DNA of 63,776 nucleotides, filler included, from Craspedostauros australis (taxonomy: Eukaryota): the NCBI GenBank assembly GCA_030167865.1. It is 9 parts of 9 records of this genome, joined end to end, with 100 filler letters (N's around TTAATTAATTAA, not from the genome) between each part and the next. Parts side by side here need not be neighbours in the genome. Positions count along the whole stretch, not along the records: positions 27,646 to 34,811 come from JALAGF010004945.1; positions 34,912 to 37,029 come from JALAGF010004946.1; positions 37,130 to 49,398 come from JALAGF010004947.1; 6 more parts are not named here. One strand, given 5' to 3'. The position numbers and the translations under genes are program-made. How positions within the stretch are numbered: the stretch's first letter is position 1; each line of letters begins with the position of its first letter. Below are positions 5,384-63,776 of this stretch, piece after piece. The notes under the pieces are model-generated. The model searched no databases. It saw nothing but the letters and a program-made list of their open reading frames with translations, and was not told the DNA's origin.

Positions 5384-6030
5384 TTACACACATGTGTTGC
5401 AAATGGATGAACAATCGCACTCATCAGTGGCTGGCTTTGCCTTTGGCATCGTTTTTTCCTGGATACAGGGCGATGGCAGTCTGGTGCCCATCCAACACAT
5501 GAACAAGAGCATCACTGCCGTTATCTGATCTCGGCACAACGCTGTCATACTATCATGTTTGCAGATGAGCACAATACTCCATTCGAATAGAACTGTAGTG
5601 CTGCAGAGCGTTCCACTCAATGATTGTAGAACATTATAGAGCAGAATGGATACGTTCAAGTTCGCACCGATGATCCATCTGGCCATTGGACACGTACCGC
5701 CACATTTCAACTACGTCGCCTCGACTCGTTCTCGACTCTGTCGTGCTATTGTCGGAGCGACGCGCTTCATCGTTCTGCGAACAGTCGAATTGAGATAAGA
5801 ATGCACCAGGGATGATGATGGTAGTGAATTGTTTTCTGGCTCCCGATTTTAGCATCGCATCAACAACCAACTCCTCTCCTCGCATGTGTGTGCGCGCACC
5901 ATTCCAACACCCATCTCTCTTCGCCTATTGGCTTTGATCTTGTGTAGTAACTGTTCTAATTCCTTTAACAAGGAATTGTCGGGCATCGCCCGACACTTGT
6001 TAAAACTATTTTTCACACGGGGAGGATCCC
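5384..6030 (-). mobile_element. Highly decayed CoDi-type copia reverse-transcriptase relic
   Basis: Fragments KELEQLLH, TTIIIPGAFL and LQSLSGTL occur in the same order as KELKQVH, TADVPGAFL and LTKALYGTL in the intact CoDi ORF at 29875. Confidence 0.45.
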
Positions 6031-6571
6031 TTGTGCTTGCACAATATCTCTCCAAGGATGGTCCTGGCATTTCACACACCGCCTTGACTGTCCACCACCC
6101 CCATCTAACTCCCCCCCCCACACACACACACACCATTCATCCACAACAAACTCCCGCTTCCTCACAAGCAGCCACCATCGCAGCTCATTGGGTGGCAACA
6201 CGCTTGATCTGGGGTCCCAATCATTCCTCTCGTGCTTTGCTTCTACCCGCGTCAGCTCAAGTAACTACGGTCGTCCGTACGTGCTCCACAATTCGAACGG
6301 TGATGGTACATCCGCGTGAGTACACGACAAGCAATCGACGGTTGTTGCGATACACGATCCTACATTCTGGAGTGTAGTATTACGAGCAACCACGCTCCGA
6401 TTGGTTTTCCTACGACTACTCTATTGTGGAACACGTGTACTTGGAAGAGGAGGATTGCATAATGTTGTTGTTGTGGTTGGCGTTGCTGTTGCTATTGGCA
6501 TTACGAAAGACCGTTCCGCTGTCTCACATGCAATCCATCCTCTCTATCCTTTCTCTCTCTCTCTTCTCGCT

Positions 6572-27545: not shown

Positions 27546-28527
27546 NNNNNNNNNNNNNNNNNNNNNNNNNNNNNNNNNNNNNNNNNNNNTTAATTAATTA
27601 ANNNNNNNNNNNNNNNNNNNNNNNNNNNNNNNNNNNNNNNNNNNNCGTCAGAAAAGCAAGACAGGCGCACGGAAAGGAACCCCTGAGACATGACCAATGA
27701 CGCCGTGCTGCATCGCGACGTTTTTTTTTATTTTATCGCCAAATAAATGAGTTACTCGAAGGAGTCAGAAAAAAAAACAACCCACTTTCGGGTTTCGGAC
27801 CGAAATGGGTGTTTTTTTTTTGCAACACGGGACATCGTGGAGGAATGTGGGACTTAAGTAGTACGTTGCCATTTTCGGCGACCTTCCGTTTGTCTCCACA
27901 GGCAAATGGGGGTCNNNNNNNCTGTGGAGGCAAATTGAGACTTCAATTTGCCTGTGGAGACAAGCTACGTAGAGTTTGTCTCCACAGACATGAAAACCCT
28001 CATTATGGATATCGATTGCGTACTTGTGAACACAAATAAAATGTCAAATAGAAAATCGATGTTTCGTGATTTTGTCATTGCATCGTTCTTTGCATGTTGC
28101 ACAGTGTTCTATTTCGTCTGTGAAACAGGAGGATGATTTGGACTTACGGAACAGAGAGTGATGTCACGATCAGAATTAACCTTCCGAATACTCGAACAAG
28201 TGAAAGCACACGAACCAACTCTTGCACAGTGTTTCAGTGACAGAAACGCGGAGGCATGGCGCCGGACAAGCAGTCTAAATGTGGAGATGCTGTCCTCTGT
28301 TTGTATGGTACGGTTTAATTGGTATCTACATACATTGGTACATCAACTATTGATGATACTGCGATGGGTACCAAAGGTCAACAAGGATGCGTCAGACCAG
28401 GGTGGGAGGCGACTGGGAAATTGGTCTCCCGCAGCTCCCAACGTCGGCCACCACGACACGGTGTCGAACCGATGATAAAATAGATAAGTGGAAATCATTT
28501 CACAACGGAGGAATAGAATAGTATATT

Positions 28528-28891
28528 TGTTACGACATAAGGTGCTGCGGAATCGAACCGCTCTGCCTACCAGGCCACCTTAGTCGAAACTGCTACTGTC
28601 TAGATACAAATACCTGTTCTGACACCCTTCCTATTGGTAACTAGACTAGCCCTTCAGCCCCTACCAGCCCTTCCGGCTACGTAGTCAGACCGCTCACACT
28701 CTATGTTTATCCTCCCGCTGTAGGGAGACGGCATTTCGTCCCAGTCGCCAACAAGGCATGATGTTTTCGAGGACTCGAACCCGCGACCTTACCATGTTAC
28801 GACATAAGGTGCTGCGGAATCGAACCGCTCTGCCTACCAGGCCACCTTAGTCGAAACTGCTACTGTCTAGATACAAATACCTGTTCTGACA
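28528..28891 (-). mobile_element. TRIM (miniature non-autonomous LTR retrotransposon), 364 bp
   Basis: Two identical 97-bp TG..CA direct repeats at 28528-28624 and 28795-28891. On the minus strand a TGG-starting PBS directly follows the 5' LTR, and the purine tract AATAGGAAGGG directly precedes the 3' LTR. Flanks are tATATT / cATATT. Confidence 0.92.
28805..28849 (-). ncRNA. Mini-tRNA-like structure inside the TRIM LTR (second copy at 28538-28582)
   Basis: Sequence TAAGGTG-GCCT-GGT-AGGC-AGA-GCGG-TTCGATT-CCGC-AG-CACCTTA forms a 7-bp closing stem, a small hairpin and a T-arm with a perfect B-box (GGTTCGATTCC). Confidence 0.7.
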
Positions 28892-29523
28892 CATATTATG
28901 ATCGTGCGAGTTGCTCCACAACATGACAGTCCGACCTGAAGTACTCCGCGAGTGCACACTCCATGTGCTTCGAGCAACGATGGATGGAGTATCATCGTCG
29001 CTGGTGTCATCACCAGCAATGCTATCGACATCATCGTTCTCCTCGTCAATGAATGATCGCGGACGACACGATGTTGGCGTCACAAGCTCAACGGCCAATA
29101 CGTGGAGACTCACCTTGAGAACAATCGATCGTGAAAAGGCCAGTCGGCACCTGTCACGTGATGTACGAGCATCGTGGACATTGACAACAACCCGCACTGC
29201 GCCACGCTACCGATGCTGCCACTACCAAACCAAGGCCAACGACCTGCAAAAAACGAAACAGCGCAAAGCATCATAGCACAACTCCGCTCATCTTCGTTGC
29301 AAGGTGAGGCGAGGCGAGATGTGACGAAACGAAACACGGCAGAACACGACGAAAACGAAACGAAACGAAACGAAACAGGTGTGACAACACAACACGATGC
29401 ATGATGAGACGGAACATGAGATCATGAGGGAAAGGCGTATTCTGGCAGCTCCATCCAACCATCTCTTCGAAGCTGTGTTCATAAAATGAATGAATCCTCT
29501 GCACAAATCAAACTTCTATCGCA

Positions 29524-32500
29524 TGTTGGTGCAGTAGACTCTGAGCGGAACAAAACCGCCGGAATGGAATCCGGACGGAGCAAGGACGCGAATGCCAACC
29601 ACCGATGCAAATCAACGGCTGGGAGCCATCATCAACATCATGCTGCGCAGCACAAGGCAAACAGCAAGAAGATGGCGAACAAGAACAACAAACAAGCAAA
29701 ACAGGCAAAGCAAACAAAAGCACACAAACTTGTGTAAACTATCTGATTACACCACCCACAACAATCTCACTTCTCTGCTTCTAGTCTATCGCTCCGGTTC
29801 ATTGCCGGGTTGGGACTGTGGCAAGAGTTGTTGTTTCAACATAGTTTACACAAGTTGCCCGCTCTATCACTGCGATGAGCAAAGAAACCAAGCCCAACCC
29901 GACAAAGCCCAAGGGCGGCGTTGGGAAGGCAAACAACCAACCCAGACGTTATCCGACGCCCCGCAAGTCCACGTTCACTGGCGCGTGCGAAGCACTCGAT
30001 GGACGTATCTTTGACTGTTCAGCATCCCGCACTAAGCAGGTGCTCCAGTACACAAAGACTCTTGACGCCATCGTGATCTACGCTGGAACAATGTACAGCC
30101 CGTACGTGCGAAAGGCCCTCGACAACATGGAGCCAACGACCTTCGATCCACCAGTTCGATACGCGAACGACGCGGACGACTACACCAAGGACCTCTGGAG
30201 GGCTCAATACAGGACGTACAGCGCACGAGTGGAGAACTACAACACCAAGATGATGGAGGTCTACGCCCTCATCCTCGGACAGTGTACCGACCTCATGCGC
30301 AGCCGTTTGACTGAGTCAACTGGCTTTGCCGCTGCCAAGTCGGCGCAAGACCCACTCAAGCTCCTTGAAGTCATCAAGAACGTGTCGTTCGATATCAACT
30401 CCAGTGAGAACATCGCCGTCACCATCTACAAGGCAATCAAGGCGTTCTACGCGATCCGCCAGACACCTCATCAGCCACTCCTTGAATACTACGAGACGTT
30501 CCTCTCACAGATCGAAGTCAACAAGAGCATTGATGCCAACCTTACTGGACATGATGGCCTCAACGACATGGCCGTGGAGCTGTCGGCACACGATGAACTG
30601 ACCGATGACAATCGGGCCAACATCCACGCGATCCGACGCGAGCGATTCCTTGCAGTCGCATTCTTGGAGGGCGCCGACCAGGGACGCTACGGCAAGCTCG
30701 TCGAAACCCTTCACAATGACTACCTCCTGGGCAGCAACAACTATCCAAGTGGCGTGACCGATGCATACAAAATGCTTGAGAACTTCCAGAACAACCCCAA
30801 GTACAACTCTGAACCTGGCGGTCCAAGCAACAAGGGCGCGGCCTTTGCCACCGTTAACGGCGCCAACAGCAAACCAGCAGGCACCGACGCCAGCACTCTC
30901 GTCACCGCAGGTGCGCCACACGGAGCCAACGATGAAGGAGATCACAACTACCACAACTACGCGCTCAACCAGTCGCCCAATCCCATCCCGGACACATGGT
31001 GGCTGCTCGACAACCAGTCAACGGTCGACATCTTCGCTGATGGTGGATATCTCTACGACATCCACGAGGTCGATGAATACCTCACTGTTCACTGCAACGC
31101 CGGGACAGCAACCACCAACCTGATGGGCACTCTCCCAGGGTACGGCGCAGTGTGGTATCATCCTGACGGAGTGGCCAACATACTCTCGCTCAGCAACATC
31201 AAGGATCGTTTCCGCATCACGTTCGACAGCGCTGGTGACAACCGGTTCATCATCCACAAGCCGGACGGCACCACCAAGGCCTTCGAAGAGTCCAGCTCTG
31301 GCCTCTACTACCATGACACGACAGTGTACCGCGGATCTGTCCTGGTGACTACTGTAGCGGGTAACAAGTCTAAGTTCTCGTCTATCGATTACTCACGTGC
31401 TCAGCTTGCCCGTTCTGTCCAGCAGCGCATTGGTCGTCCGTCCACTCGCAACTACATCAAGTATGTAAACAACAACATGATCCAGAACTGCCCCGTCACC
31501 AGTAAGGACATTCGCAATGCCGAGCTCATCTTCGGTCCTGATCTCGGATCACTCAAAGGCAAGACGGCTCGCACCACATCACCGCAAGTGCAAGCAGAAA
31601 TCACTGCTTTGCCCTTCTCCATCCTGCGTCAGTATCAGGAAGTCACACTCTCCGTGGACATCATGAAGGTGAACAAGATCCCATTCCTCGTCACCATTGC
31701 AAAGCACATCAAGCTTGGCACTGCTCACAAACTAGACTCCGAGTCTAGCACATCCATCACCAAGAGCATCATGATGATCGTGCGGGTCTACCAACAGCGT
31801 GGATTCAAGGTGGTCATGGTCCTCACCAACAACCAGTTCGAGCCCATCCGCGGCGCACTCGCAGCAGCAGGGACAGCGCTCAACGTCACAGCTCGTGACG
31901 AGCACGTCCCAGCAGTTGAGAGATACATTCGGACTATCAAAGAACGCACCCGCAGCATGTACAACGCGCTGCCATTCAAGCAGTACCCGCCAGGCCTCCT
32001 CATTGAGATGGTATACACCGCTGTGTACTGGCTGAACATGTTCCCGCATCACGACGGGATCTCCAAGCGAATGAGTCCGGCTGAGATTGTGGTTGGACGC
32101 AAGCTTGACTTCCACAAGCACTGCAAGGCGGAATTTGGAACGTACGTGCAGACGCACGAACAGCATGACAACAGCATGCATCCCAGAACCATCGCAGCAC
32201 TTGCACTGCGACCATCTGGAAACGACCAGGGAAGCTACCACTTCTACAGCCTTCTCACCGGAAGGATCCTGCACCGTAACAACTGGACGGAGTTGCCGAT
32301 GCCAGATGCTGTGATTAAACACGTTCACGATCTTGCCAAGCAGAAGAAAGGCCAGAATGACATCGTGTTCACAGATTCACACGACAACATCGTGATGTTG
32401 CCGACCATCGGTGCAACCAAGGACGATCCCAATGACGCAGATTACGATCCAGATGACGAATCTGAGGCCAGCGAAGAGTCGCTTGATGCTGACATCGAGT

Positions 32501-34811
32501 CAGATGAGGATTCCAATGACGATGACTCGGACGGCGATGATGCCGATGATGATGATCCAAACGATGCGGACTACGATCCCGCTGATGAGTCGGAGGCCAG
32601 CGACGATCCGCTGGAGCTCTATGTCGGCGCAGAGGGCGGCAACGATGATGATGATGAAGAGGAGGAGGAGGAGGAGGATGAGGAGGCGGATGACAGTGGC
32701 AGCGATGATGACAGCACCTTTGTCCCGAGTGACGCGGACGAGGACGATCACGACGATGATCACGATCCTGATGCTGCTGGACTTGAGCAAGAGGAAGCCG
32801 GCGCACTCTTGCCCGCCAAAGAGACAATGGACCAGCCAGCCATTGATCCGCTGATCGCACCCATCCATGACGTCGTGCACGAGTTCGTCAACGAAATGCA
32901 AGCTCGGCCAGGTGGTCCCAATGATCCAGGAGTGGACGGCGCTGCCGATGAACAGGAACCGGAGCAGGAAGGACGCCGCACTCGTGGAGGACCGCGACCT
33001 GACTATGCCAGGCTGCACAACGTGGGCACCACCGACACAGGAGCCCATGCAACGATGGTGCAGGTGTCAACCAATGCGGAGGACAAAGTCTGCGATGAGA
33101 AGGTGGGATACACTCTTCTCACCGAGCAGATGAATTGGAAGAGAGGCCTCAAGCTGTTCAACGAACGCGGAGAGGATGCAATCAGCAAGGAGCTGAAGCA
33201 AGTGCATGACATGGAAGGATTTGAGCCAAAGCATTGGCATCAGCTCTCCAAGGACGAGCGTCGCAAGTCGCTGCGATACCTCATGTATCTGAAGGAGAAG
33301 CGCACCGGTCTCATCAAGGGACGGGGGTGTGCGGACGGCCGACCACAGCGGCTGTACATGACCAAGGAGGAAACCAGCTCCCCCACCGTCTCCCTGCTCG
33401 GACTGATGCTCACATGCATTGTCGATGCACACGAAGGGAGAGACGTTGCCACCGCCGACGTCCCCGGAGCATTCCTTCAGACCACTTTTGACAAAGGCGA
33501 GATCGTGCATGTCCTCATTGAAGGACGCATGGCTGAGCTACTTGCCAAGATCGCTCCTGATGTGTACAAGAAATACGTCAACCAGAAGCGAGGACAATCG
33601 TCCATCTACGTGCAGCTGACGAAGGCGCTGTACGGAACCCTCAAGGCCGCACTTCAGTGGTGGAAGGATCTGACGACCACCCTCGTGGAAGATGGATTCA
33701 CCATCAACCCATACGATTGGTGCGTGGCCAACAAGGACGTCAACGGCAGCCAATGTACTGTCGTCTGGCATGTCGACGACCTGAAGATCTCTCACAAGGA
33801 CAGCTCGGTCGTCGACGATGTGCTCCAGATGCTCAGCGAGGCATATGGCAAGCACAGCCCGCTCGCTGTCACCAGAGGCAAGGTCCATGACTATCTTGGC
33901 ATGCAACTGGACTTCTCCAATCCCGATCAGGTGCAGATTGGCATGAGCGAGTACATCAATGGCATTCTCGAAGGAGTACCGGCAAACATGCATGGCAAAG
34001 CCACCACGCCAGCAGCTGAGCATCTGCTCGACATCAACGAGAACAACCCAGTCAAGCTGGATCAGGAGACAGCCGATCTGTTCCACCACACCGTGGCCAA
34101 GCTGCTGTTTCTGTGCAAGCGTGCACGACCAGACCTGCAGACCGCAGTCGCATTCCTGTGCACTCGTGTCAAGGCACCTGACGAGGATGACTACAAGAAG
34201 CTCACCCGCGTTATCAAGTATCTCCGTTCCACCAAGGATATGACTCTCACTCTTGGAGGGTCCTCGCTCGAGAATGTGCAGTGGTGGGTCGACGGATCCT
34301 TTGGCGTGCATGGCGACATGCGCAGCCACACTGGAGCACACATGTCCACCGGGGCCGGCACCATCTACGGCGTGTCGACCAAGCAGAAGCTGAACACCAA
34401 GAGCTCAACGGAAGCCGAGCTCGTTGCCGTGGACGACGTGATGCCGCAAGTGCTCTGGACTCGATACTTCCTCGAGGAGCAAGGCATCAAGGTGGAGCCA
34501 ACCACCATCCATCAGGACAATCAAAGCACCATGTTGCTTGAGAACAACGGCAGGGGCTCAAGCGGCAAGAAGACGCGTCATATCAGTATGCGCTATTTCT
34601 TCGTCAGCGACAGGATCAACAAAGGACAGATCTGTGTCAAATACTGCCCGACCGACGACATGATCGGCGATTTCTTCACCAAGCCAGTGCAGGGATCCAA
34701 GTTCCGCAAGTTCCGTGATCTCATCCTCAACCGCACAGAAGCCAATCCAACCAAGGCCAAGACCTACAAGCAGGCCCTCATTGGATCGAAGGAGTGTGTT
34801 GGTGCAGTAGA
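29524..34811 (+). mobile_element. CoDi-type Ty1/copia LTR retrotransposon, nearly complete (3' LTR cut by contig end)
   Basis: The 5' LTR is 29524-29841 (TGTTGGTGCAGTAGA…TTCAACA). The same start recurs at 34797-34811 after the purine-rich GAAGGAGTG. There is a single gag-pol ORF. Confidence 0.95.
29875..34811 (+). CDS. Copia Gag-Pol polyprotein (Gag, protease, integrase, RT, RNase H)
   Basis: Protease WLLDNQST; integrase VDIM…HVPAVER; RT DVPGAFL, KALYG, HVDD; RNase H VDGSF, SSTEAE, QDNQS, DFFTKP. Domain order is copia-type and the ORF reads into the 3' LTR. Confidence 0.95.
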
Positions 34812-36363
34812 NNNNNNNNNNNNNNNNNNNNNNNNNNNNNNNNNNNNNNNNNNNNTTAATTAATTAANNNNNNNNNNNNNNNNNNNNNNNNNNNNNNNNN
34901 NNNNNNNNNNNTCTCCATCTTCCGTGATTCCGGAGACCTTGACATCGCCCATGTCACCTTACGTCAAACGACCCCAATACCTGCCACTTTCACCCGCGGA
35001 ACGGTGGCAGATCCTGCAAAGGATCGGATCTCCTCCAAACCAAATCAAGAAAGCCATCACNNNNNNNNNNNNNNNNNNNNNNNNNNNNNNNNNNNNNNNN
35101 NNNNNNNNNNNNNNNNNNNNNNNNNNNNNNNNNNNNNNNNNNNNNNNNNNNNNNNNNNNNNNNNNNNNNNNNNNNNNNNNNNNNNNNNNNNNNNNNNNNN
35201 NNNNNNNNNNNNNNNNNNNNNNNNNNNNNNNNNNNNNNNNNNNNNNNNNNNNNNNNNNNNNNNNNNNNNNNNNNNNNNNNNNNNNNNNNNNNNNNNNNNN
35301 NNNCAACCAATCGCCATCGTATACGAACGTGATGAAGCGTCGTCTCGATTCCGACATCGCAAGGCACATCCAGTCCGTGCCATTTTAATAGCATGCCCAT
35401 GCTGTCCTTGCGCAAAGGGAGATCCACTCGGAATCACTCAAAGCAATACACTTGAGTGCAATTGCAAAATGGGATGGGATAGTGTGGTGTGGCAGTAACA
35501 GATAACATCACCTCTCTCTCTCTCTCTCTCTCTGGTGTTGCTTGACGGAGGTCGTCCGAGTACTCAATCTCTTGCGTCGACACCACGATCACAACAGTAA
35601 GAATCAACAACGAATGAGGACAGAATCAAGGTGTTTCGAAAAGTGCGGGACTTGTGCCATCTTGTGCGCACGCATTCTTTTCTCCTTCAACTTTATCACC
35701 GGAATCGTCGCGACCACCAATGACGTAGTTTTGTTCGGTGGAACTCTAATTGCTTGGTGAGCTGATTCGTCAGTTGAGTTCTCTGGACAGAATCTGTGAC
35801 TTTTCGCGTGTGCTTGTGGAGTCATCACACCGTTCGCGTTTGTCTGTCCCATAATTATCATTGTCACTCAGACAAGAAAAGGCATCGCAACAAGATAGCG
35901 AAGATGGAGGTGTCTTGCGCACAATTTGCCTGTCCGAACAACGCATCCGATCAACACCATGACGCATGTCACGAGTTGTGGTACCCACACGTTTTGTTCC
36001 TCCAACCTTCCCACAACCAGTCTGCCTCCAACACACACAGAGAGGGGACTGGAGCGTCTGATCATTCACAAGAGGGCGCGAGTGTCGGCACGGTATGGAA
36101 CTGCGTTTCTGGGAATGCCAAACGCATAGCCACTCCTCAGCCAGGTCATTCACCACGAAGAAAGCAACGACTGCTGTGGCGACATCATCATCCTCCTCCT
36201 CCAAAGAAGACAGTCAGAGCACCATCTCTCCAAGAGCGCGATTATTCGCACGAGTAGATAGTGATAGATAGAGACCCCCGCATCCTCGTACCTCCGTTCA
36301 TGCCTCCATTCGTACCTGCACTCACTGCCAACAAGTCAATCACAAACAAACGAACCCGATGCG

Positions 36364-36954
36364 ATGGGACAGGATCGCACTGATGCGCAGTACATAGCGA
36401 TGGGCGTCGCGATGACGACATCCAGCCTGCTCTCCATTGTGGGATCATCCTTGATCATCTACATGGCCAGACGCGACCTATCCTTGGTCTACCATCGCAT
36501 CCTCATCGTGATCTCCATCGCGGACATCATCGCTGGTGCATTCAATGCNGTCCATCTCTTCCTCGTCCCGTCCGACCGCACGGACAGCCCCATCGCATTC
36601 GGAAANGACACGACGTGCACCATGCTCGGTTTCGCCCTCAACAGCGCCCCCATGATCATCACGCCGTACAACACCTTCCTGGCCGTCAACTTTCTGCTGC
36701 AGATACGGTACCGATGGACGAATCAACAAATTGCAATGCAGATCGAGCCGTACGTCTTCCTCCTCACGATTCTCATGGCCGTCTGCATTCCCAGCGTCGG
36801 GCTCCTCCAGAATTCATTCGCATTGAACTACCTCAGCGGGTATTGCATCTTTGGCACGTACTACTCCGACCGGAAAGGATTCAGCCCGAACACAGGCACA
36901 GCACGCTCTGTTTTTGTCGTTCAGCCAGCCTCAGAAGCTGCGGGAGAAATATAA
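36364..36954 (+). CDS. GPCR-like multi-pass membrane protein, N-terminal four helices (appears truncated)
   Basis: Segments SSLLSIVGSSLIIY, YHRIL..ISIADI, CT..GF and LAVNFLLQIRYRW….IEP follow the pattern of cAMP-receptor/Git3-like 7TM proteins. Similarity is lost after about 36862. Confidence 0.7.
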   Translation: MGQDRTDAQYIAMGVAMTTSSLLSIVGSSLIIYMARRDLSLVYHRILIVISIADIIAGAFNXVHLFLVPSDRTDSPIAFGXDTTCTMLGFALNSAPMIITPYNTFLAVNFLLQIRYRWTNQQIAMQIEPYVFLLTILMAVCIPSVGLLQNSFALNYLSGYCIFGTYYSDRKGFSPNTGTARSVFVVQPASEAAGEI

Positions 36955-37129
36955 AACCACACAATCAAGTGCTGGTCGAATAAAAAGAAGCACGCCCGAC
37001 GGACCCTGATAATATGCGCTTAGAGAGTGNNNNNNNNNNNNNNNNNNNNNNNNNNNNNNNNNNNNNNNNNNNNTTAATTAATTAANNNNNNNNNNNNNNN
37101 NNNNNNNNNNNNNNNNNNNNNNNNNNNNN

Positions 37130-37324
37130 AGAGAGGATCTCGCGTACCGACTCATAGTCGGAGACTGAATCTACGAAACAGATTGAAGCGCCGAGAGCAT
37201 CGGGCAAGAGAACAGCGTACACCGAGAGGATCGGAGTAGCCAAGTAATGAAATAGCAAACAGACGACTATCAACCAACACCATCTTCCACGATCGTAGGT
37301 TACCGTGAGCGGAACTTGCCAACA
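37130..37324. mobile_element. LTR-like terminus (…GGAACTTGCCAACA), same family as 16013-16209
   Basis: Clear diverged repeat of 16013-16209, ending at the same CCAACA. Confidence 0.7.
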
Positions 37325-38318
37325 TGGGTGAATAGGGATCGCCTCTGTTTCGCTTTCTCACATTAGGTTCTCAGGGACGCGTCGACTTGTTCAGATATAT
37401 TGGTTGTCGCGCTCATTCGATTCACTCAGGGCTGGTGTGTTGCCATCGTCATAGATCTCTCGGTTCCCGACCGTTATCAGGACATGGCCGAGTAGGCCAC
37501 TGGATGAGGGTGCTTGGATGTCGCATAAGACAGGAAAGGCCATTGGGCTGTCCGAGTGCAACTGGTCGATTGCTAGGTTGCGGTTTGTCTGGGAGATGCT
37601 ATTGGGGGTTGCGGCAATCATGGGTATCTTTACACTTAATACCATTCCGGTTCCAGTCAGTCCTCATGGGATCTGCGGTAGAACACGGTATCTTTGCAAA
37701 GTCGTACCCCCGATTCCTGACACCGCTGCGCATGTTGCCCACCACGGCTGGGGCTGTGCCAACCGCTACCATGTATTCCGTCAATTCTGTCACCGACTCT
37801 TCGCATGCATCGTCTAACCCACCACAGATTAAAAGATGCCCCACTGTCTCCTCCTGACGGCAGTTGGGGCAGGCTGAGTCCCCTTGCTGCCCTGTCTGCT
37901 TCAATTTGCGGCCCACCGCCATGAACCCAGTGGAAAGCTTCGTCACAAAGTGGGTGTGCTCGCGGGCGGAGGCGGACTTGCGTGCCTTGGAGTACGCTAG
38001 CCAGTCCACCAAGGAGCAATCCAATTCGCTCCAGCCATGCTTCACTCGCCAGTAGTCGAGGATGTCTTCCCTCTGCGCGACTGCTTCCATTGCGGCGATA
38101 TCCATGTGTGAGTATGGAACGCCACTCCAACCGATTCGCCAAATAGAGGCCGAAACGACCCACTTGTCAATCGCCGGCAATGACGATACTGTCTCCCAGT
38201 GCCGCTTGGCTTCCGCGTCCGCACGTACGTTGAGCCTGGCCCAGATGTCGAGAGGGGATGAGGAGTCATCCTGGTGTCCTTTCACCCACCTCCAACTCAG
38301 GGAGCACTGGAGCATGGA

Positions 38319-39940
38319 TGTCAGGAATCGAGGGTGCGACTATGTCGTGTTATACCAGATTGCCGCACCTCCCATAGTACCAAAAATAGACTGACCCATA
38401 TACCAAAGTCGGACACGCTCCCAAGTCTATTGTGGACCTCCTCCTCTGTGTGTCAAGAGTATGACGGACGACGGACAGACTAATGATGTGACATGTTTTG
38501 AGGGTGATGACGAACCGGCAATGGCGAACAATGGATGTGAAAGGGAGACTGGAACACCGAAGTGTTCCAAGCATGAGGGTTGACCGGTTAACCTGAAACA
38601 TCTATGCGAAAACGCTATCACNGTTGAGTCGCTCGGAACCCAGAACATGATTACGTGACTGACAGAGAACCAGCGAAGGAGAACAAAGCGCGGACTGGAA
38701 CAGCATCGAAGAACTGGACTGATCGTGCCAGAACTCCATGTTCTGAGCAAGTGTGATTGTCGGTGAATGTGTGAGAAGAGTGAGTGAACAACACGGAAGA
38801 GTGTACTGAATGAGTGATGGATGCCTGATGAGAAGAGAGTGAATCAAGCATCGGCATGCATGCACCTTAGGAGTGTAGACCGATATCTCAACAGACGAGC
38901 ACGGTGAAATGCACTTGTCATGAGCAATGAAATGGGCATGACAGAGAGATTGCAATGATGATTATGAGGGGCAACTACAGGAGGCCATCAGCATCATCAT
39001 GGGCAAACGAGTCGACAATTTGAGAAATGAGTGTGTTGTTCTCACAGTTCTAAAACGGTACAGTTTTGTCAGGAATCGGGTGTTCTGAAACACCATATTG
39101 CCGCACCTCCCAAGAGTAAGGAGCCGAACGTGGGGATATTCTACATTACCGCAACTCCCACGTTTGATCATTGTGACACAGAAAAATGTGAGCTGCACGT
39201 AACTCGCGGTGGAGAACGCCACGTGCCGAATACGAACCATGCCTGACGTTCATGACTCCAATGCAGGAATGCGAATCACACGTGTATGTCGCAGGGGGCG
39301 GGGATGTTGGAATCGTGACCAACATCACGATACGAGCAACTACGGCCCCCACGTCGCAACCAATGAGATAAGAGTACTGGGAACGAACCTGGGAACGAAC
39401 CTAGGAACGAACCTGGGAACGAACCTGGTATGAGGAACATCCAGGAAGCCGGTGAAGTGATCGGCGAAGAAACAATCAGAAACGATCGGAGTCGACCAGN
39501 NNNNNNNNNNNNNNNNNNNNNNNNNNNNNNNNNNNNNNNNNNNNNNNAGCTCCCAACCAAGGCGTTCCCGCAACGGATGAGAGATCGTGATCTGATCGAA
39601 TGAGCCGATCTGTGTCATGCCTACGACTCGGTGATGTCTAAGGCATCGAAACTATTGGCGGAGGACAACGTGCTAATGTGCACGAATATGGGGTACTCGG
39701 TGGTGCATGCATGTCCATGATGAATCTGCGATGAATGCAAGATGGATGCCTGCTAGACCAACAGAGGGACCCATGGCAATCTCAGGAGGAGATTGGACTT
39801 TGCAATCAAGAGCAATGAAGAGCTCACAGTTCAGAGAAGTAGATTCTAACAAACGATTAGTTCTCTACTATCACACCACCCCGGATTTCCAACACAGTTT
39901 AATAAGCATTAGACTCTACTATAACCCCGGATTTCCAACA
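38319..39940. mobile_element. Solo-LTR-like element A (about 790 bp net) with 6-bp TSD CATGGA
   Basis: Termini are TGTCAGGAATC…GATTTCCAACA. CATGGA occurs at 38313-38318 and 39941-39946. Removal restores the LINE peptide EHVKSMLQC. Confidence 0.88.
39067..39894. mobile_element. Related solo-LTR-like element B nested in A, 6-bp TSD CAGTTT
   Basis: Same termini as A. CAGTTT occurs at 39061-39066 and 39895-39900. It contains (GGGAACGAACCT)x4 and an internal N gap. Confidence 0.85.
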
Positions 39941-41169
39941 CATGGACTTAACATGCTCGATCTCTGAGAGGATGTCCCAGTCTCTATGCGTAGGCCTTGG
40001 AGAGCCATCTCTAGCTCTGTTGAGGGCCTGCTTGCCATCTAACGCGAGGGTGATGGAAGGGATGCTCACCTCTTGCTCCAGAAGAAAAACGTGGATGAGG
40101 GAGGCGAGAATACCCGTCAGTTCGCTTCGATATGAGCTCTGCGTTGGGGCTGTCCCAGGGACCGTGGCCAACACCGAAACCAACTTCTTTGTACGGGTGT
40201 CGTAGATGATGGAGGCGGAGGTGCCCCGGCCATCTTTGTAGGAGCCGTCACTCACTGCCACAAGAGTACCCGCCTCGGACGCCCGCTGAGCGTCTTGGGG
40301 AGTAAGGTCGCCCTCCGTGCTTTGGATGTACTGGAAACACTCTGGCTCGTGGTGCGGGACTTCATCTTGCGTTATTTGAGGGCCGTGAGTGCCATCCTCT
40401 CCGACCGTCATGAAATTGATGTCTCCTCTCGGAAATGGCAACATCGAAACCGCGATGATTGCACGTACGGAGACTCAACGCTCCACTATGTTACTACTAA
40501 TAGAGATGATGCGGATCCAGTTCTAATGGATGCTGCACATCACATGCTCACAATCCTTTTGAAAGTCTCATTTGGATTCGTACAGCTTTAAAGACTAAGA
40601 CATACTCTCACTCTCAAACTCACCAACCTACTGCACTACCACAGATTGATCACCCTTCGGCGTTCAGTAAGTTCACCTCGTTTCCATTATCGTTTTATCA
40701 TCCCACGTGACGTAGTGTTCGTGCCTTGTTACCGAGACTCGGACTGCCTCCACTGGTATCGGTTCGCCGGTGGACATGGGGTTGAACCGTGATAGCCGAG
40801 TACGCTGTTGGCCTTGAGTCCGAGTATAGACGACCGTGGAGGCGGCCGTCACTTCGAAAATCGAATCAGTGAGCGGGTCAAGCCACCATCGCCACGTGTG
40901 TTCGTCAAAATGCCAGGGGCCAAGGGGCGTCGTCAGAGCTCCGTCTGGGTGCGACAGCCGGTCGCAAAACTTCTTCCACTCGTTCCACCAGCTTTCTGGT
41001 AGACTTGAAGGCAGTCGTGGCCAAGACTTTCGCAGCGTGGATGTTTGGTGCCCTGCCATGGCAGCTGCTGTGAGACGGGAGCCATCTGCAGTGGCGATGG
41101 CTGAGACGAACACCGCCCCAAGCAAAAGCCGGCACATGTTCACGCGCCGGAGCCGATGGCCGTGGTACC

Positions 41170-41375
41170 TATCAGCACAAAATCGAATAGTGCTAAGTAC
41201 GTTACTCCTGTAGCCCCCACTATCTATAAATTTCACTTGTGTTCGGTTCAGCAATCGCATCGCCTGTAGCTCAACGGTAGAGCACCAGTAATTCTAACTG
41301 AGGTTCCAGGTTCGAATCCCGGCATGGTACTTTGCTTTTGCTCGCCCCTTGTGATTTTTCAATAGTGCTCTAATA
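41170..41375 (+). mobile_element. 206-bp solo-LTR-like insertion carrying a tRNA-like sequence, 5-bp TSD GTACC
   Basis: GTACC occurs at 41165-41169 and 41376-41380. Termini TATCAG…CTAATA form an imperfect inverted pair. Removal restores the LINE peptide GHGYHGHRL. Confidence 0.85.
41260..41330 (+). tRNA. tRNA-like/pseudo-tRNA (nominal anticodon TTC, but non-canonical loop and mismatched acceptor stem)
   Basis: D-arm TA-GCTC-AACGGTA-GAGC, anticodon arm CAGT/ACTG with a 7-nt loop, T-arm CCAGG-TTCGAAT-CCCGG. T-runs lie downstream and TATAAAT lies about 35 nt upstream. Confidence 0.65.
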
Positions 41376-42935
41376 GTACCCGTGGCCCAGAGCTAACTCC
41401 GTCAGCGCTCTGTCGCCTTGCCTCTGTGGTATCATCGCCAGGGTGTTTTCCTGGATGTGGAACCTGGCCTCCTGTATGTCGCCCCACAGGTTGGAGATCC
41501 AACAGGGAGTGAGAGCATCTCGGAGGAGATGATGGGGGTGGTCAAAAAGGGAGCCTGACACACCCACTTCGTCTTTGAGGGCCTCTATCGAGTGCTCGAT
41601 CATCTTCCCTGTCGGGGTTGCCGCATGGACCTCCAGGAACATGGCCTGCACCTGTCGTACAACTTGGCGCCTCCAGGGATTCGGAATCCCAAGGCCTCCT
41701 TCGGCGACTGGTGCATAGAGAACTGTGCGGGGAAAAGTGCGCATCAGCTTCATCTTGGGGAGCGCGGCTTGCAAAGCTGGGGCTGTGATATAGTTCCATT
41801 GGTTGGGTGTTAGTTGCACCGCAGGCATCATGTACTCAATGGACTTCATAAACTGTAGTACCAGAGCAGTTTTGGCCTTGCTGGGGGACACTTGGGCCAC
41901 CCTCAGCTTTTCAGCAAACAGCTCTGCCTTCCAGTGAAGGGTGCTGACTTGGACATCGTTGCGACCGTCGAGAGAGATAGCCACGCCCAGCGTTTCGACT
42001 GGGTCGGTGTGACGCTTCCTTGAAATAGTGGCTCTGTCTTTGCCACTGCCTTGAATGTCCACGATGCCGTCTACGTGTGAGTCCTCTGCCCACCATTGGC
42101 CTGACTCGAAGGAGAAGTGAACTGCCCACCACGCAGATTTGGCGGGCACGATGGCGCCGCCCGTGGCTGCGAGTAAGCCGCTCCATTCCTCGATCATGGC
42201 TTGGAACTTCTGGAATCCCTCTTCCGGAGATTCTCTGGCCTTGGAGACACGGACGAGGTCTGTGTCGTCGACGAATGCGGACCCCAATACTCTCATCGGG
42301 GAGAGGCTGAGAGGCGCTCGAAGCACCGACTCATGCCCCTGAGCTTGCATTGCCTTGAACATTACGGAGCTAAAGGCTGCGGTCATACTCAGAGTAGCAT
42401 TCGCTACATGGGGACCAAAACCTGCACGCCGAACTCTAGTCAACATACAACATCGCATCCAGCTCCAATAACAGCATGAACTGACATGGTATTACACATG
42501 CAACGCATGCTACACACCAACCCAATAGTACACATATCTTGTGATATACTCTACTCCTGACTTTCTGCACTACCATTTGCTCTTCAGCTGTATGATCGAC
42601 CACTGGCAACAATGCACTCAACGGCCGGACAGTCGCAGACGTGCATCTTTGCAGTGTGCAAACGTGCATTGACGCCACAAATTGAAATTTTGTGGGTGAG
42701 CAGAGGTGCGCGACGTTGCGCACACAATTCGCAACGCGCTTCCAACAAGTCTGCGCAACTGCAAGGCACGGGAATTCCGTTGAAACTGACACTCGATCGC
42801 ACTTGACCAAGACGACCACTCCACAAACACAATCACGATTCGACTACAGCGACTAATATGCTCGACCAGTAGAAGAAAATATAACGTCTATAACCGTTAT
42901 TGTTTTAAAATCCGAACACCAGGCTAATCGCAAAT

Positions 42936-43146
42936 AAACGTTGAAACTAATGACGAAACGTTGAAACTAATGACGAAACGTTGAAACTAATGACGAAACG
43001 TTGAAACTAATGACGAAACGTTGAAACTAATGAAGAACCGTTGAAACTAATGAAGAAACGTTGAAACTAATGAAGAAACGTTGAAACTATCGGCGAGGTG
43101 TTGAAACTATCGGCGAGGTGTTGAAACTAATAGAGAGCCGTTGAAA
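42936..43146. repeat. 20-bp tandem array (AAACGTTGAAACTAATGACG and variants), about 11 units
   Basis: GTTGAAA recurs exactly every 20 nt from 42940 to 43140. Confidence 0.95.
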
Positions 43147-43173
43147 GCAGTCACGATTCATTCGTGAAGCCTT

Positions 43174-45266
43174 GTGACACTCCAGATGAAAAATGACGCA
43201 CGTAATTTGATCGAGGCGATGTCATCACACAACAGGGCAACGGCGGAAAAGCCTCCATTTCTGTTCGTGTTTTGTTGGCGCTCTTGCCATCCACTATCCA
43301 TTATCCATCAGTCATCATACAATCGAACAAGACAGGAAGCCCAACAAGCTGGGCAACGAGCACCTAAAGAAGGCATTGAGGCGGAGGCAGCGAGGGAAGC
43401 CTTGTCGCAACCATCGCGAGCAGCAGAGGATGGCAGCGAGGGAGGAACCACCACAACAACCATGAGGAGAAGGGGACGGCAGCGAGGCGGAGGCAGCGCG
43501 AGCAGCAGCACTGCAAGAATCGCCAGCAGCAGGGGGCAGCAGCGAGGAGGAGACAGCGAGAGCACCACCACCGCAACCGTTGCAAGCAGCAGAGGAAGGC
43601 AACGAGGCAGAGGCAGCACGAGCAGCAGCACCACAAGCATTGCAAGCAGCAGGGGACCGCGGCGAGGCGGAGGCAGCGAGAGCACCACCACCGCAAGTAT
43701 CGCAAGCAGCAAGAGCAGCAACACCGCAACAATCGCAAGCAGCAGGGGACAGCGGCGAGCCGGAGGCAGCAAGAGCACCACCACCGCGACCATTGCAAGC
43801 AGCAGAGGGCTGCAGCAAGGCGGAGGCGGCGAGAGCACCACCACTGCGAGCATTGCAAGCAGCAGACAGCTGCCGCGAGGCAGAGGCAGCGAGAGCACCA
43901 CCACCGCAAGTATTGCAAGCAGCGAGAGCAGCAACACCGCAACAATTGCAAGCAGCAGGGGACCGCGGCGAGCCGGAGGCGGCAAGAGCACCACCACCGC
44001 GACCATCGCAAGCAGCAGAGGACCGCGGCAAGGCGGAGGCGGTGAGAGCAGCAGCACCGCAAGCAGCAGACGGCTGCAGCGAGGCAGAGGCAGCGAGAGG
44101 ACCACCACCGCAAGTATCGCAAGCAGCGAGAGCACCACCACTGCGACCATCGCAAGCAGCAGACAGCTGCCGCGAGGCAGAGGCAGCGAGAACACGACCA
44201 CTGCAACCACCGCAAGCACCAGAGAAAGGCAGCACGATGGAGGCAGCGAGGGCAGCAGCACGGCAACCCAGAAATCAACCGAAACTGATTTCTTGGGGCA
44301 CCATGAAGTGCTCACACTTGGCCTCAAGTATGCCGGTTTCCGTCAGGAAAAGATGGCAGATCGCACGATGCAGACTCGCTTTGCTGCAACGTACGGACTG
44401 TGCCCTGAAAGCTTTGCTTCCCTCTTCGTGGATCTCTTCAACAGCCAAACGGCACAATTCAAACGTCCGCGTCCGCGCGATCTCTTTGTTGTCTTGAACT
44501 GGCTGAAAACATACTGCACAGAGCATGTGATGGCTGGCCGATGGAATTTGGATGAGAAGACTATCCGTGGTCTCATCTGGTCGTACTTGCCAGCTATTCA
44601 AGCCCTGCTGCCACAAAAGGCAAGTGTGACAAAGGGAATCTTGTGCTGGAATGCTTCTTTCATTTCCTTCTCTCGAACGAACTCTCTCACATGTTTCTCT
44701 TCTTTCTTTTCATTCTGGTACACCATCAATAGGTCATCTGGCCGCCAAACACAACAGAACTTGCAGGAGACGATAAACACTTCATCATCACTGTTGATGG
44801 TGTTCACATCAGGATCCAAGAACCACGGATGGACCCAGGAACCAAGTGGTACTCTCACAAGTCTCACTCAGCTGGTTTGACGTATGAGCTCGGGATATCC
44901 CTGGCAGAGAGCAAGCTGGTGTGGATCAATGGGCCATTTCCAGCTTCCACTTCAGATCTGGTGATGTATCGCAAGCCAGATGGTCTCAAATCCAAGATCC
45001 CACCGAATGCCCTGGTAATTGCTGATGGGGGGTACAACAATGAGCCTACAATCAGTGCCCCAAATCCGTGTGATTCTGCTGCTGTGAGGAAGTTCAAGAA
45101 TCGAGCAAGAGCACGGCATGAGAGCTTTAACGGAAGAATCAAGAACTTCCAAGCACTTGCGAATGGGTACCGCAATCAACTGAGCAAGCATCAGTGCCTA
45201 TTTGAGGCCTGCTGTGTTTTGATTCAGTACGAACTCGACCATGGCCATCCAATATTTGACATCTAA
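43174..45266 (+). CDS. ISL2EU/PIF-Harbinger-type DDE transposase with low-complexity repetitive N-terminus; GC-AG intron 44620-44732; start uncertain
   Basis: HTH-like region WLKTY.TE…AGRW. After splicing: ITVDGVH…EP, WYSHK, YELGI, WINGP, ADGGY and RARHESFNGRIKNF (D-D-E). Confidence 0.88.
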
Positions 45267-61798: not shown

Positions 61799-63776
61799 AG
61801 CAATCGTCCACGTAGATGGCCACGATCATGCTTCCTTCGTTCGTCTTCCTGTAGAACAGGCACGGGTCTGCTGCGCTCTGTTTGAAGTTGATATTCTTGA
61901 GGGTCGACACCAACATCTTGAACCATTGCCTGGCACTCTGCACAAGTCCGTAGATTGGCTTGTGTAGGGTCAGGGCTTCGTCTGGTTGATGATCCATCCC
62001 ATTGGACAGTTCATGTAGATCTCCTTGTCGAGGTCACCATGTAGGAATGCCATTACGACATTGACGAGTGCGCAGTCCATCTTCTTGATCAGCATGATCA
62101 CCATCATGACCCGATAGGTCACGTCATGGATGACGGGTGAATAATGCTCTTGGAAGTCCACTCCTGCGATTTGTGAATAGCCACATGCAACGAGTCGTGC
62201 TCGATGTGTGCCGTCACGCTTCAGCTTGAAGACCCATTTGCACTTGCAGCATCTGCGGCCGCGTGGGATGGCGTCTCGTTTGATCTTGCTGTACACCTTT
62301 CGTGTATCCATGGAGTCGAACTCCTTCTTGATGGCTGCTCGATATCCCTTTNGATGGATGGGATCTGGGTGATTGAAGGCTCCATCGAATGTCGTTGGTT
62401 CGATGTGCTTTTCTGGTTCCTTGTTCTCGTCCTGCATCGACAGTCCGATGTCGATCGCTGGTGCTTGGGTGATGATTGCGTTCATCCCGTATAGTCCTGT
62501 TGTGCTATGGTGAGTGATCTCGATCTCTTCTTCTTCGTCTACGATTTCTTCGTCATCTGTAGTTTCGTTGTTGGATTCGTCGGTTATCTCATCGCTCAGG
62601 TCGTCACTATTTTGGTTGGATGATGACTCGCTCTCATAACCTTCCTCCTTTCGACCTCGTTCGTTGAAGTCTGCGAGCTCACGCAGAGCTCTGGGAATGC
62701 TCTTCCCTGTAGTTGGCTTGAGGTTAGCTTCTCCCTTCCTGCCTCGTGCTTCATGACGTCGGATTCTCTCCTTTCTAGCTATGTCATGCTTGCTTGGTTT
62801 GCTTGGTGGAGATCTCAATGGTGTGTCATGTGTAGATCTCGCTGGTGTGTTTGGAGGAGTGACGCCTGTGTCATCGTCGGCTTCGTTGCCGGATAGTGCG
62901 GTCTCGTCATCCTCATGATTGGATTCGCTCCGATCTTCCTCGTCGTTATGGACTAGTTGAGTTACTGCTCCATTGTCCTCATCATCCTCGTCATCACTGT
63001 CTGATAGGATGTGGTATCTGTTGGTGTCAGCGAAAGATACTCTCTTCGCTTCTGATGTTCGACGCATTGCCGTTCTTGGCATTGCTCCCTTCCGTCCGAT
63101 GGTTGTGAAGCCGTCTGCGTCCGTTGTTCCTGCTTTGCTGGATATGTTCGGTGCTGGTGCCCAGCCACGGAACTGTCCGTATGATTGGTTGAGCCACTTG
63201 ATGTCGCGAGAACAGACCAACGATTTGGTTGATGGTCTGTACATGTTGTAGACTCCTGATGTGTGTTGGTGTGCATATCCAATGAACACCATCTCCTCTC
63301 CTCTATTCTTGAGCTTGGCGGTGATCCCACCGTAGGTAGTCTTCACAACACCCACCTCTCCGAATGTGCGGAGTGCATCCGCATATGGTAGATCGCTGCC
63401 AAAGAATCGTCAATGTGGTGACTCTTTCTGATTCTTCGCTACGGTGATGTTGGTGATGGCGGTGGCAGTGCTCGCAGCTGCTGCCCACAGGCTATGCCTA
63501 TACTCTTTGTCGAGTTGTGCTCCGTTGAGCATGGAGCGGGTTTTGGTGTAGAGATATGCGAACTTGCGCTCGACTCTACCGTTCTGTTGTGGCGTGTTGG
63601 ACGCCGTGAGCTCGAATTTCGCATTCAGTCCAGCCTCGATGAGAGTATCTTGTGTGGCCTTGTTCTCTCCGCTGTTGTCTCCTCGGAAGATGATTTGTTG
63701 ATCACCTGTGTGTGATTTGATTGTCTGGACGAATCGCTTGATGTATCCGGGCTGGTCACTCTTGTTCTTCAAGAAG
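61799..63776 (-). mobile_element. Decayed Ty1/copia element (integrase + RT), different lineage from the 29.5-kb CoDi
   Basis: Integrase RGDNSGEN…TPQQNGRVER; RT KWVFKLK, RARLVACGYSQIAGVDF, IYGLVQSARQW, IYVDD. There is an in-frame stop at 63412-63410, a frameshift near 61995, and the first RT Asp has changed to Asn. Confidence 0.92.

Follow-up and report, generated by a model that had tools for sequence, protein, structure and literature searches.

Conserved complementary arms point to self-priming in a CoDi-type Copia retrotransposon clade of diatoms

Do the mobile elements of a diatom genome recruit host transfer RNAs (tRNAs) to start reverse transcription, or can they supply the primer themselves? 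The question is raised by a stretch of DNA from Craspedostauros australis (GenBank assembly GCA_030167865.1), hereafter the window, which is 63,776 nucleotides (nt) long and consists of nine contigs chained by N44-TTAATTAATTAA-N44 spacers. A silicon transporter gene at 17316-18037 indicates that the host is a diatom. The region of interest comprises contig c4 (27646-34811), the small contig c5 and the first third of contig c6 (37130-49398). According to the original prediction, priming independent of host tRNAs is a recurring strategy among the long terminal repeat (LTR) retrotransposons of this genome, and three elements of this region may form a spectrum from a captured tRNA gene, through a reduced tRNA mimic, to self-priming. 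Two of the three, a terminal-repeat retrotransposon in miniature (TRIM) and a CoDi-type Copia element, both lie on c4, and the third lies on c6. Taking our explanation as a whole, we consider it probable that the three mobile elements are mutually unrelated and that tRNA-independent priming is displayed by one of them only. That one is the Copia element; like dozens of its relatives, it very probably primes itself in the manner of the Tf1 element, using the opening bases of its own RNA.

The complementary arms and their conservation

The CoDi-type element comprises the following features.

29524-29841, plus strand: 5′ LTR (TGTTGG...TTCAACA), 318 base pairs (bp), its start repeated at 34797-34811
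about 29524-29726, plus strand: U3, by subdivision of the LTR
about 29727-29841, plus strand: R-U5, by subdivision of the LTR
29727-29742, plus strand: 5′ arm (putative self-primer), presumed to form the opening 16 nt of the transcript, with ACA directly before it
29792-29809, plus strand: U5 hairpin with a CCGG/CCGG stem; a hairpin occupies the matching position in most relatives
29841-29856, plus strand: 3′ arm, the presumed primer-binding site (PBS), beginning at the final LTR base
29875-34811, plus strand: open reading frame (ORF) of the Gag-Pol polyprotein, open to the contig end, with RVT_2 at residues 1125-1368
34790-34811, plus strand: polypurine tract (PPT) AGGAGTG followed by the 3′ LTR, which the contig end truncates after 15 nt

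The ORF that starts at 29875 encodes a polyprotein of 1,645 amino acids with a Copia-type RVT_2 domain (Pfam), and the named relatives of this polyprotein come from Fistulifera solaris and Fragilaria crotonensis. On the basis of the domain and of these diatom relatives, the element is classed with the CoDi-like Ty1/copia elements of diatoms. Membership of the Tf1/sushi group, which is Ty3/gypsy, is contradicted by RVT_2, a domain of the Copia type, and by PF07727, which all the homologs carry. One relative, P0052, is filed by NCBI under a Marinobacter metagenome-assembled genome and is probably a eukaryotic contamination of a bacterial bin.

The start of the 5′ LTR is placed at 29524 because the final 15 nt of c4 (34797-34811, TGTTGGTGCAGTAGA), which follow the purine run AGGAGTG, repeat positions 29524-29538. 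The PPT-region sequence AGGAGTGTGTTGG is likewise present in relatives. An independent mark of the LTR start is provided by a public run, X1 (contigs, share 0.06), whose coverage of the region is limited to 28306-29525, the Copia element lying outside it: one contig tracks the left flank of the element at about 93% identity and diverges at 29525/29526.

Within the element we find a perfect 16-nt inverted repeat, with one arm inside the LTR (29727-29742) and the other at 29841-29856, the last A of the LTR opening the 3′ arm. The RNA from 29727 to 29860 is predicted to fold at -46 kcal/mol (z = -6.4; 0 of 200 shuffled sequences fold as well), and the arms close a multi-helix domain. The claim that the PBS of this element is complementary to a segment of its own LTR is thus borne out.

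Relatives of the element were drawn from metagenome contigs, in which 603 stretches were matched and 536 confirmed; the best 80 were kept and gave 78 loci with 38-63% identity. Protein relatives of the polyprotein were collected as well, 25 of them were aligned (A1), and a profile derived from A1 located the gag N-terminus in 36 of the 78 loci. A MAFFT alignment (A2) left the 5′ arms out of register, and the pairs were counted per locus by a script instead. The set of 36 elements referred to below consists of the window element and 35 relatives.

A perfect complementary pair of 14-17 nt is present in 34 of the 36 gag-bearing loci. In L016 the pair is split, its 5′ arm lying in the LTR copy at the opposite contig end, and L049 is an old copy, with LTRs 92.9% identical, in which the pair has decayed with mismatches. 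Loci with short upstream sequence (L008, L021, L026 and L037) carry the pair too. The 36 elements, that of the window included, have 29 distinct arm sequences, and none of the 29 PBS sequences begins with TGG. The 3′ arm starts at the LTR-terminal A of the AACA end, or at the next base, in all 36; CA stands directly before the 5′ arm in 35 and TCA in 28. When the arm of one element is set against the PBS of another, the mean pairing falls to only 4.8 nt. Conservation within the family, which the original prediction had proposed as a check, is found here: the pair persists in the relatives with complete covariation across these 29 arm sequences.

An unbiased inverted-repeat scan of all 78 loci and contig c4 (399,445 nt in all; perfect repeats of at least 14 nt, spaced 30-300 nt) returned 43 perfect inverted repeats, 38 of which lie at a CAAC(A)/TAAC(A) LTR end, five loci outside the gag set included; the remaining 5 sit elsewhere in the loci and c4. 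Shuffled upstream regions (30 shuffles per locus) reach 12 nt at most. In the minimum-energy fold the arms are paired in 31 of 31 segments, and in most of these folds the 5′ arm is followed by a small hairpin and the centre is taken up by a long stem-loop.

Other features of the relatives may be recorded here. Directly 3′ of the 5′ arm, their R-U5 contains a conserved CTGGTTTAC (for example, L007 2525-2648 and L054 11726-11851). Their conserved U5 hairpin (..GTTGCCTTA..GCACGG..), whose outer pairs vary by locus, suggests a structure that extends beyond the primer duplex. A sub-family of seven loci (L031, L039, L040, L041, L042, L046 and L047) has the arms CTCTTTTTACGAAAT / ATTTCGTAAAAAGAG in common, and the leader that separates the PBS from the start of gag is unusually long in these loci, at about 300-570 nt.

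How the arms may be used

From the pairing, position and covariation of the arms, we infer a transcription start, a cut and a priming step. The motif TCAH+1W has been proposed as a diatom initiator (PMC4686930). The conserved (G)CTCA before the 5′ arm fits this initiator-like motif, and the transcription start may therefore be placed at or next to the arm; in the window element it would lie at or beside the CA directly before 29727. The opening ~16 nt of the transcript would then fold back on the complementary site at 29841-29856, the RNase H of the element would cut the RNA after the paired arm, and the resulting 3′ end would prime minus-strand DNA synthesis. Under the standard model of LTR reverse transcription, the primer would later be copied back into the PBS in each cycle, so that the arms of intact copies would always be perfectly paired, with their letters drifting freely between lineages.

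The better of two alternatives is that the inverted repeat represents a long-range RNA structure that acts in packaging, dimerisation or translation control, and that the element uses another primer, for example a tRNA fragment. Long-range structures of this kind serve packaging in other retroelements, and the arms do close a conserved multi-helix R-U5 fold. However, a purely structural role leaves the position of the 3′ arm to be explained, which is exactly that of a PBS, at the last base of the LTR, in 36 of 36 elements, and no other conserved candidate PBS occurs downstream of this arm. A shared trans-acting primer is ruled out by the 29 different arm sequences, and the unfailingly perfect pairing in intact copies is a prediction of primer-to-PBS copying. 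We therefore regard the structural alternative as very improbable. That the arms match by chance or through an assembly artefact is hardly credible: many arms are AT-rich and many loci are LTR-collapsed metagenome contigs, but the shuffles stop at 12 nt, 38 of the 43 perfect repeats fall at one conserved motif, and L017, L049 and L035, each with two separate LTRs, have the same layout.

Certain observations count against self-priming, or against the breadth that we assign to it. The rows of the comparison are not all independent, as L074 and L075 have identical arms and seven loci share one arm pair. The 5′ arm of the window element follows ACA and not TCA. Moreover, the 78 loci come from the best 80 of 536 confirmed relatives and hence represent one clade. 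Within that clade, the putative self-priming architecture is ancient and clade-wide and did not arise within this genome.

Comparable systems are known. Tf1 is a proven self-primer, and the Tf1/sushi group and the plant Copia lineage TAR are predicted ones (PMC6317226). As is presumed of the CoDi element, Tf1 and Tf2 of Schizosaccharomyces pombe and the Tf1/sushi group have a PBS directly after the 5′ LTR that is complementary to the start of their own transcript, and Tf1/sushi elements likewise lack a tRNA-type PBS and have extra structure in U5 (PMC5445492, PMC6317226). The difference is one of superfamily, as the diatom element, a putative self-primer, is Ty1/copia (RVT_2) and Tf1/sushi is Ty3/gypsy. 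The TAR lineage of plant Ty1/copia (Houba, Osr-1) is likewise Copia with predicted self-priming (PMC6317226), but TAR is a lineage of green plants whereas CoDi is a clade of diatoms. The fungal GalEa Copia elements are placed in Copia branch 1 together with CoDi and also lack a tRNA PBS (PMC5445492). Their 'conserved hairpin site' at the PBS position takes in the final A of the 5′ LTR, and it is a short local palindrome or hairpin for which its authors found no complementary LTR or U5 partner (PMC5445492). The CoDi clade, unlike GalEa, has its partner within the LTR, at a distance of about 70-165 nt upstream. The arms measure 14-17 nt in the diatom clade, compared with 11 nt in Tf1.

Our literature search, the supplements of the plant and fungal surveys aside, found no paper that describes self-priming in diatom CoDi/Copia elements, and no discussion of the PBS was found in the available parts of Maumus 2009, on CoDi elements, and Llorens 2009. 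A search of the viral contig collection yielded no relative of the CoDi polyprotein.

A Helenus-type TRIM and its primer

The second element on c4 is short and non-coding.

28528-28892, minus strand: TRIM (Helenus/TRIMp3-like), 365 bp, no ORF, delimited by two 98-nt direct repeats
28795-28892, minus strand: 5′ LTR in element orientation (direct repeat)
28528-28625, minus strand: 3′ LTR in element orientation (direct repeat)
28805-28848, with a second copy at 28538-28581, minus strand: mini-tRNA look-alike of 44 nt that folds at -16.1 kcal/mol
28780-28794, minus strand: PBS-like TGGTAAGGTCGCGGG, then a sense T-arm-like GGTTCGAGTCC
28626-28635, minus strand: PPT AATAGGAAGG, by sequence reading

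The TRIM is a genuine element that inserted recently and exists in more than one copy. Its 98-nt LTRs are 100% identical, and a 5-bp target-site duplication (TSD), ATATT, is found at 28523-28527 and 28893-28897. We assign the TRIM to the minus strand because TGGTAAGGTCGCGGG then directly follows the ..GTAACA end of one LTR and AATAGGAAGG directly precedes the other. A plus-strand reading was rejected; it offers no TGG, no purine tract and only a weak, imperfect hairpin. Run X1 includes a 297-nt contig that is identical to one LTR and the interior, and a second contig in which other DNA adjoins the LTR edge at 28795; the different flank indicates that the TRIM family has more than one insertion. 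The DNA to the left of the TRIM (28306-28515) is itself repetitive in run X1, where contigs with depths of 133-214 and ~88-92% identity end at 28515, 12 nt before the TRIM.

The look-alike in each LTR has AAGGTG and CACCTT as the two strands of an acceptor-like stem, together with a small hairpin, GCGGTTCGATTCCGC as its T-arm and a discriminator A; it has no anticodon arm. The Rfam tRNA model does not match it as a whole, and only the 15-nt T-arm is matched, at 10.7 bits. According to Kojima 2024 (PMC10886601), Helenus/TRIMp3 elements are TRIMs with tRNA-derived LTRs from fungi, animals and a plant; their TSDs measure 5 bp in fungi and plants, and they contain the motifs box A (TRGCY..YGG) and box B (GGTTC). 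The paper uses neither the word diatom nor the word stramenopile. By the motif definitions given there, a box A-like TGGCC..TGG and a box B-like GGTTC can be read in the LTR of our TRIM. Like Helenus/TRIMp3 and Cassandra elements as described in the same source, this TRIM has short LTRs, a PBS, a PPT, a 5-bp TSD and a sequence of small-RNA-gene origin in each LTR. Being non-coding, with two LTRs, PBS, PPT and TSD, it is most likely a non-autonomous element of the published Helenus/TRIMp3 type that carries a cut-down tRNA copy in each LTR. It differs from the published elements in that its tRNA copy has no anticodon arm and in that the 3′ end of the look-alike partly fits its own PBS (PMC10886601).

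It is this partial fit that led to the claim that the mini-tRNA is the partner of the PBS. The TRIM and its tRNA look-alike are indeed there, but the match is limited to 6 encoded bases (ACCTTA/TAAGGT), or 9 with a hypothetical CCA, in the exact register of a tRNA and followed by two mismatches, and the PBS starts with TGG, which is canonical in tRNA-primed elements. We believe that priming by an ordinary host tRNA, which is assumed here, is more likely than priming by a self-encoded RNA, and the latter we rate as unlikely. Some autonomous element would mobilise the TRIM, and a host tRNA pairing with TGGTAAGGTCGC... would prime it. What follows the LTR is likewise a tRNA-like piece in sense orientation, AAGGTCG + CGGGTTCGAGTCC, whose start resembles the AAGGTGG of the LTR copy. 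Because this piece is tRNA-like, the fit between PBS and look-alike may simply reflect two copies of one tRNA-derived module, and the partial match is probably due to common descent from a tRNA.

The duplex energy tells against priming by a host tRNA: TGG-T-AAGGT pairs with the CCA-tailed end at -15.9 kcal/mol, compared with -9.2 ± 2.8 for shuffled sequences, only 2.5% of 1000 shuffles being as good. This figure belongs to a wider alternative, according to which host tRNA primers have been given up broadly among diatom LTR elements: RNase P and RNase Z would excise the mini-tRNA of the TRIM, or RNA polymerase III (Pol III) would transcribe it, and it would then receive a CCA tail and prime its own PBS, beside CoDi elements that prime themselves. 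The PBS TGG-T-AAGGT does fit CCA, discriminator A and ACCTT at the predicted 3′ end of the acceptor in exact register, CCA addition would account for the TGG of the PBS, which is not encoded in the LTR, and the case for CoDi self-priming is itself solid. Against this stand the limits of the match, with 6 encoded bases and then two mismatches, and the evidence of a single family with invariant copies, the other TRIM contig of run X1 being identical. Only 18 nt separate the start of the A-box-like motif from that of the B-box-like motif in the LTR, a short distance for a tRNA-type Pol III promoter. The mini-tRNA is not recognised by the Rfam tRNA model, and the published description of the Helenus families states that no complementarity of the PBS to the tRNA-like part of the LTR was found (PMC10886601). 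Finally, the third element of the region, a pillar of the original prediction, is not an LTR element. We therefore place broad abandonment of host tRNA primers at the same low probability as a self-encoded TRIM primer.

Further searches bear on the primer of the TRIM. A self-priming layout of the CoDi type was not found in it, the best pairs between LTR and post-LTR sequence being 6 nt long. With ARAGORN, neither the window nor the 43 loci covered, out of 78, yielded a tRNA gene. The PBS string has no second occurrence in the window or the 78 loci, the mini-tRNA has no match in the genome contig or viral contig collections, and the PBS string and its complement returned only unrelated matches in the literature.

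The third element, its surroundings and the meaning of the arms

The third element lies on c6, and two features describe it.

41265-41324, plus strand: degenerate tRNA-like sequence within a ~0.2-kilobase (kb) insertion (Rfam tRNA, 29.9 bits)
37599-42491, minus strand: remnant of a non-LTR retrotransposon resembling a long interspersed nuclear element (LINE), identified by homologs and colinear ORF pieces

It had been taken for an LTR element with a full tRNA-like gene. The tRNA-like sequence exists and is degenerate: its Rfam score of 29.9 bits (gathering score 29, E = 0.035) covers no more than model positions 6-65, ARAGORN calls no tRNA there, and by reading only 4 of the 7 pairs of the acceptor stem can form and the base at position 33 differs from U. 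The ORF pieces run from 42491 down to 37599, on the strand opposite to the tRNA-like sequence. The largest piece (41370-42491) has homologs of ~1,900 amino acids with RVT_1, Exo_endo_phos (an endonuclease of the apurinic/apyrimidinic, or AP, type) and zf-RVT, which are proteins of non-LTR retrotransposons, and a weak zf-RVT match occurs within the remnant. No LTR pair was found on contig c6, and the RVT_1, endonuclease and zf-RVT homologs are of the non-LTR type, so the element does not qualify as an LTR retrotransposon. Non-LTR elements have no PBS. Therefore, this remnant says nothing about LTR priming.

The ORF pieces are colinear with protein P0122, and at the tRNA-like site only 8 residues are missing over ~236 nt, which implies that the tRNA-like sequence sits in an insertion of ~0.2 kb. 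Direct repeats of 9 nt (AATAGTGCT) lie at 41186 and 41361, 175 nt apart. The idea that the insertion has terminal inverted repeats was not borne out. As part of the same probable explanation given at the outset, the tRNA-like insertion breaks the ORF of the LINE-like remnant and has no link to LTR priming.

Other features of the window are listed for completeness. To the right of the remnant, a fragment of a DDE_Tnp_4 (Harbinger/PIF-type) transposase is found at 44733-45266 on the plus strand (E = 8.6e-16), beside long tandem arrays of a 20-nt unit (42893-43172) and a 60-nt unit (43368-44270). A U2 spliceosomal small nuclear RNA gene lies at 5911-6100 on the plus strand (Rfam, 114.6 bits). Terminal inverted repeats of 89 nt at 13263-13351 and 15395-15483, 98.9% identical and ~2.2 kb apart, probably mark a DNA transposon. 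A second, different Copia fragment (RVT_2 and SH3_retrovirus) occupies 61970-63409 on the minus strand at the edge of contig c9, where LTR and PBS are not readable. An 18-nt perfect inverted repeat at 27890-27963 adjoins a 7-N gap in c4 and lies outside the TRIM and the Copia element.

Of the three pillars of the original prediction, that of the Copia element is strongly confirmed and can be generalised, that of the TRIM is weak, and that of the third element fails. The TRIM and the third element do not support a genome-wide trend, and the proposed spectrum from captured tRNA gene through mimic to self-priming finds no support. A version in which diatom retrotransposons left host tRNA primers by two independent routes, a whole Copia clade through its own 5′ RNA end and Helenus-type TRIMs through a CCA-tailed primer processed from a cut-down tRNA in the LTR, appears slightly less likely still than a self-encoded TRIM primer taken by itself. 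If it were true, the elements would gain immunity to silencing by 3′ tRNA fragments along either route.

With this TRIM, the Helenus/TRIMp3 class, described only recently, is probably extended to diatoms. As for the Copia element, one may speculate that it escapes PBS-directed silencing by tRNA fragments. Self-priming has so far been proven only for gypsy elements of the fission-yeast Tf1 type and predicted for one plant Copia lineage. Its probable fixation across a large and diverse clade of diatom Copia elements would mean that the strategy is old and widespread. Annotation pipelines for LTR elements that seek a tRNA-type PBS would have reason to miss or misjudge such self-priming Copia elements in diatoms, and the arms of the clade are a natural source of covariation data on the RNA structure concerned.

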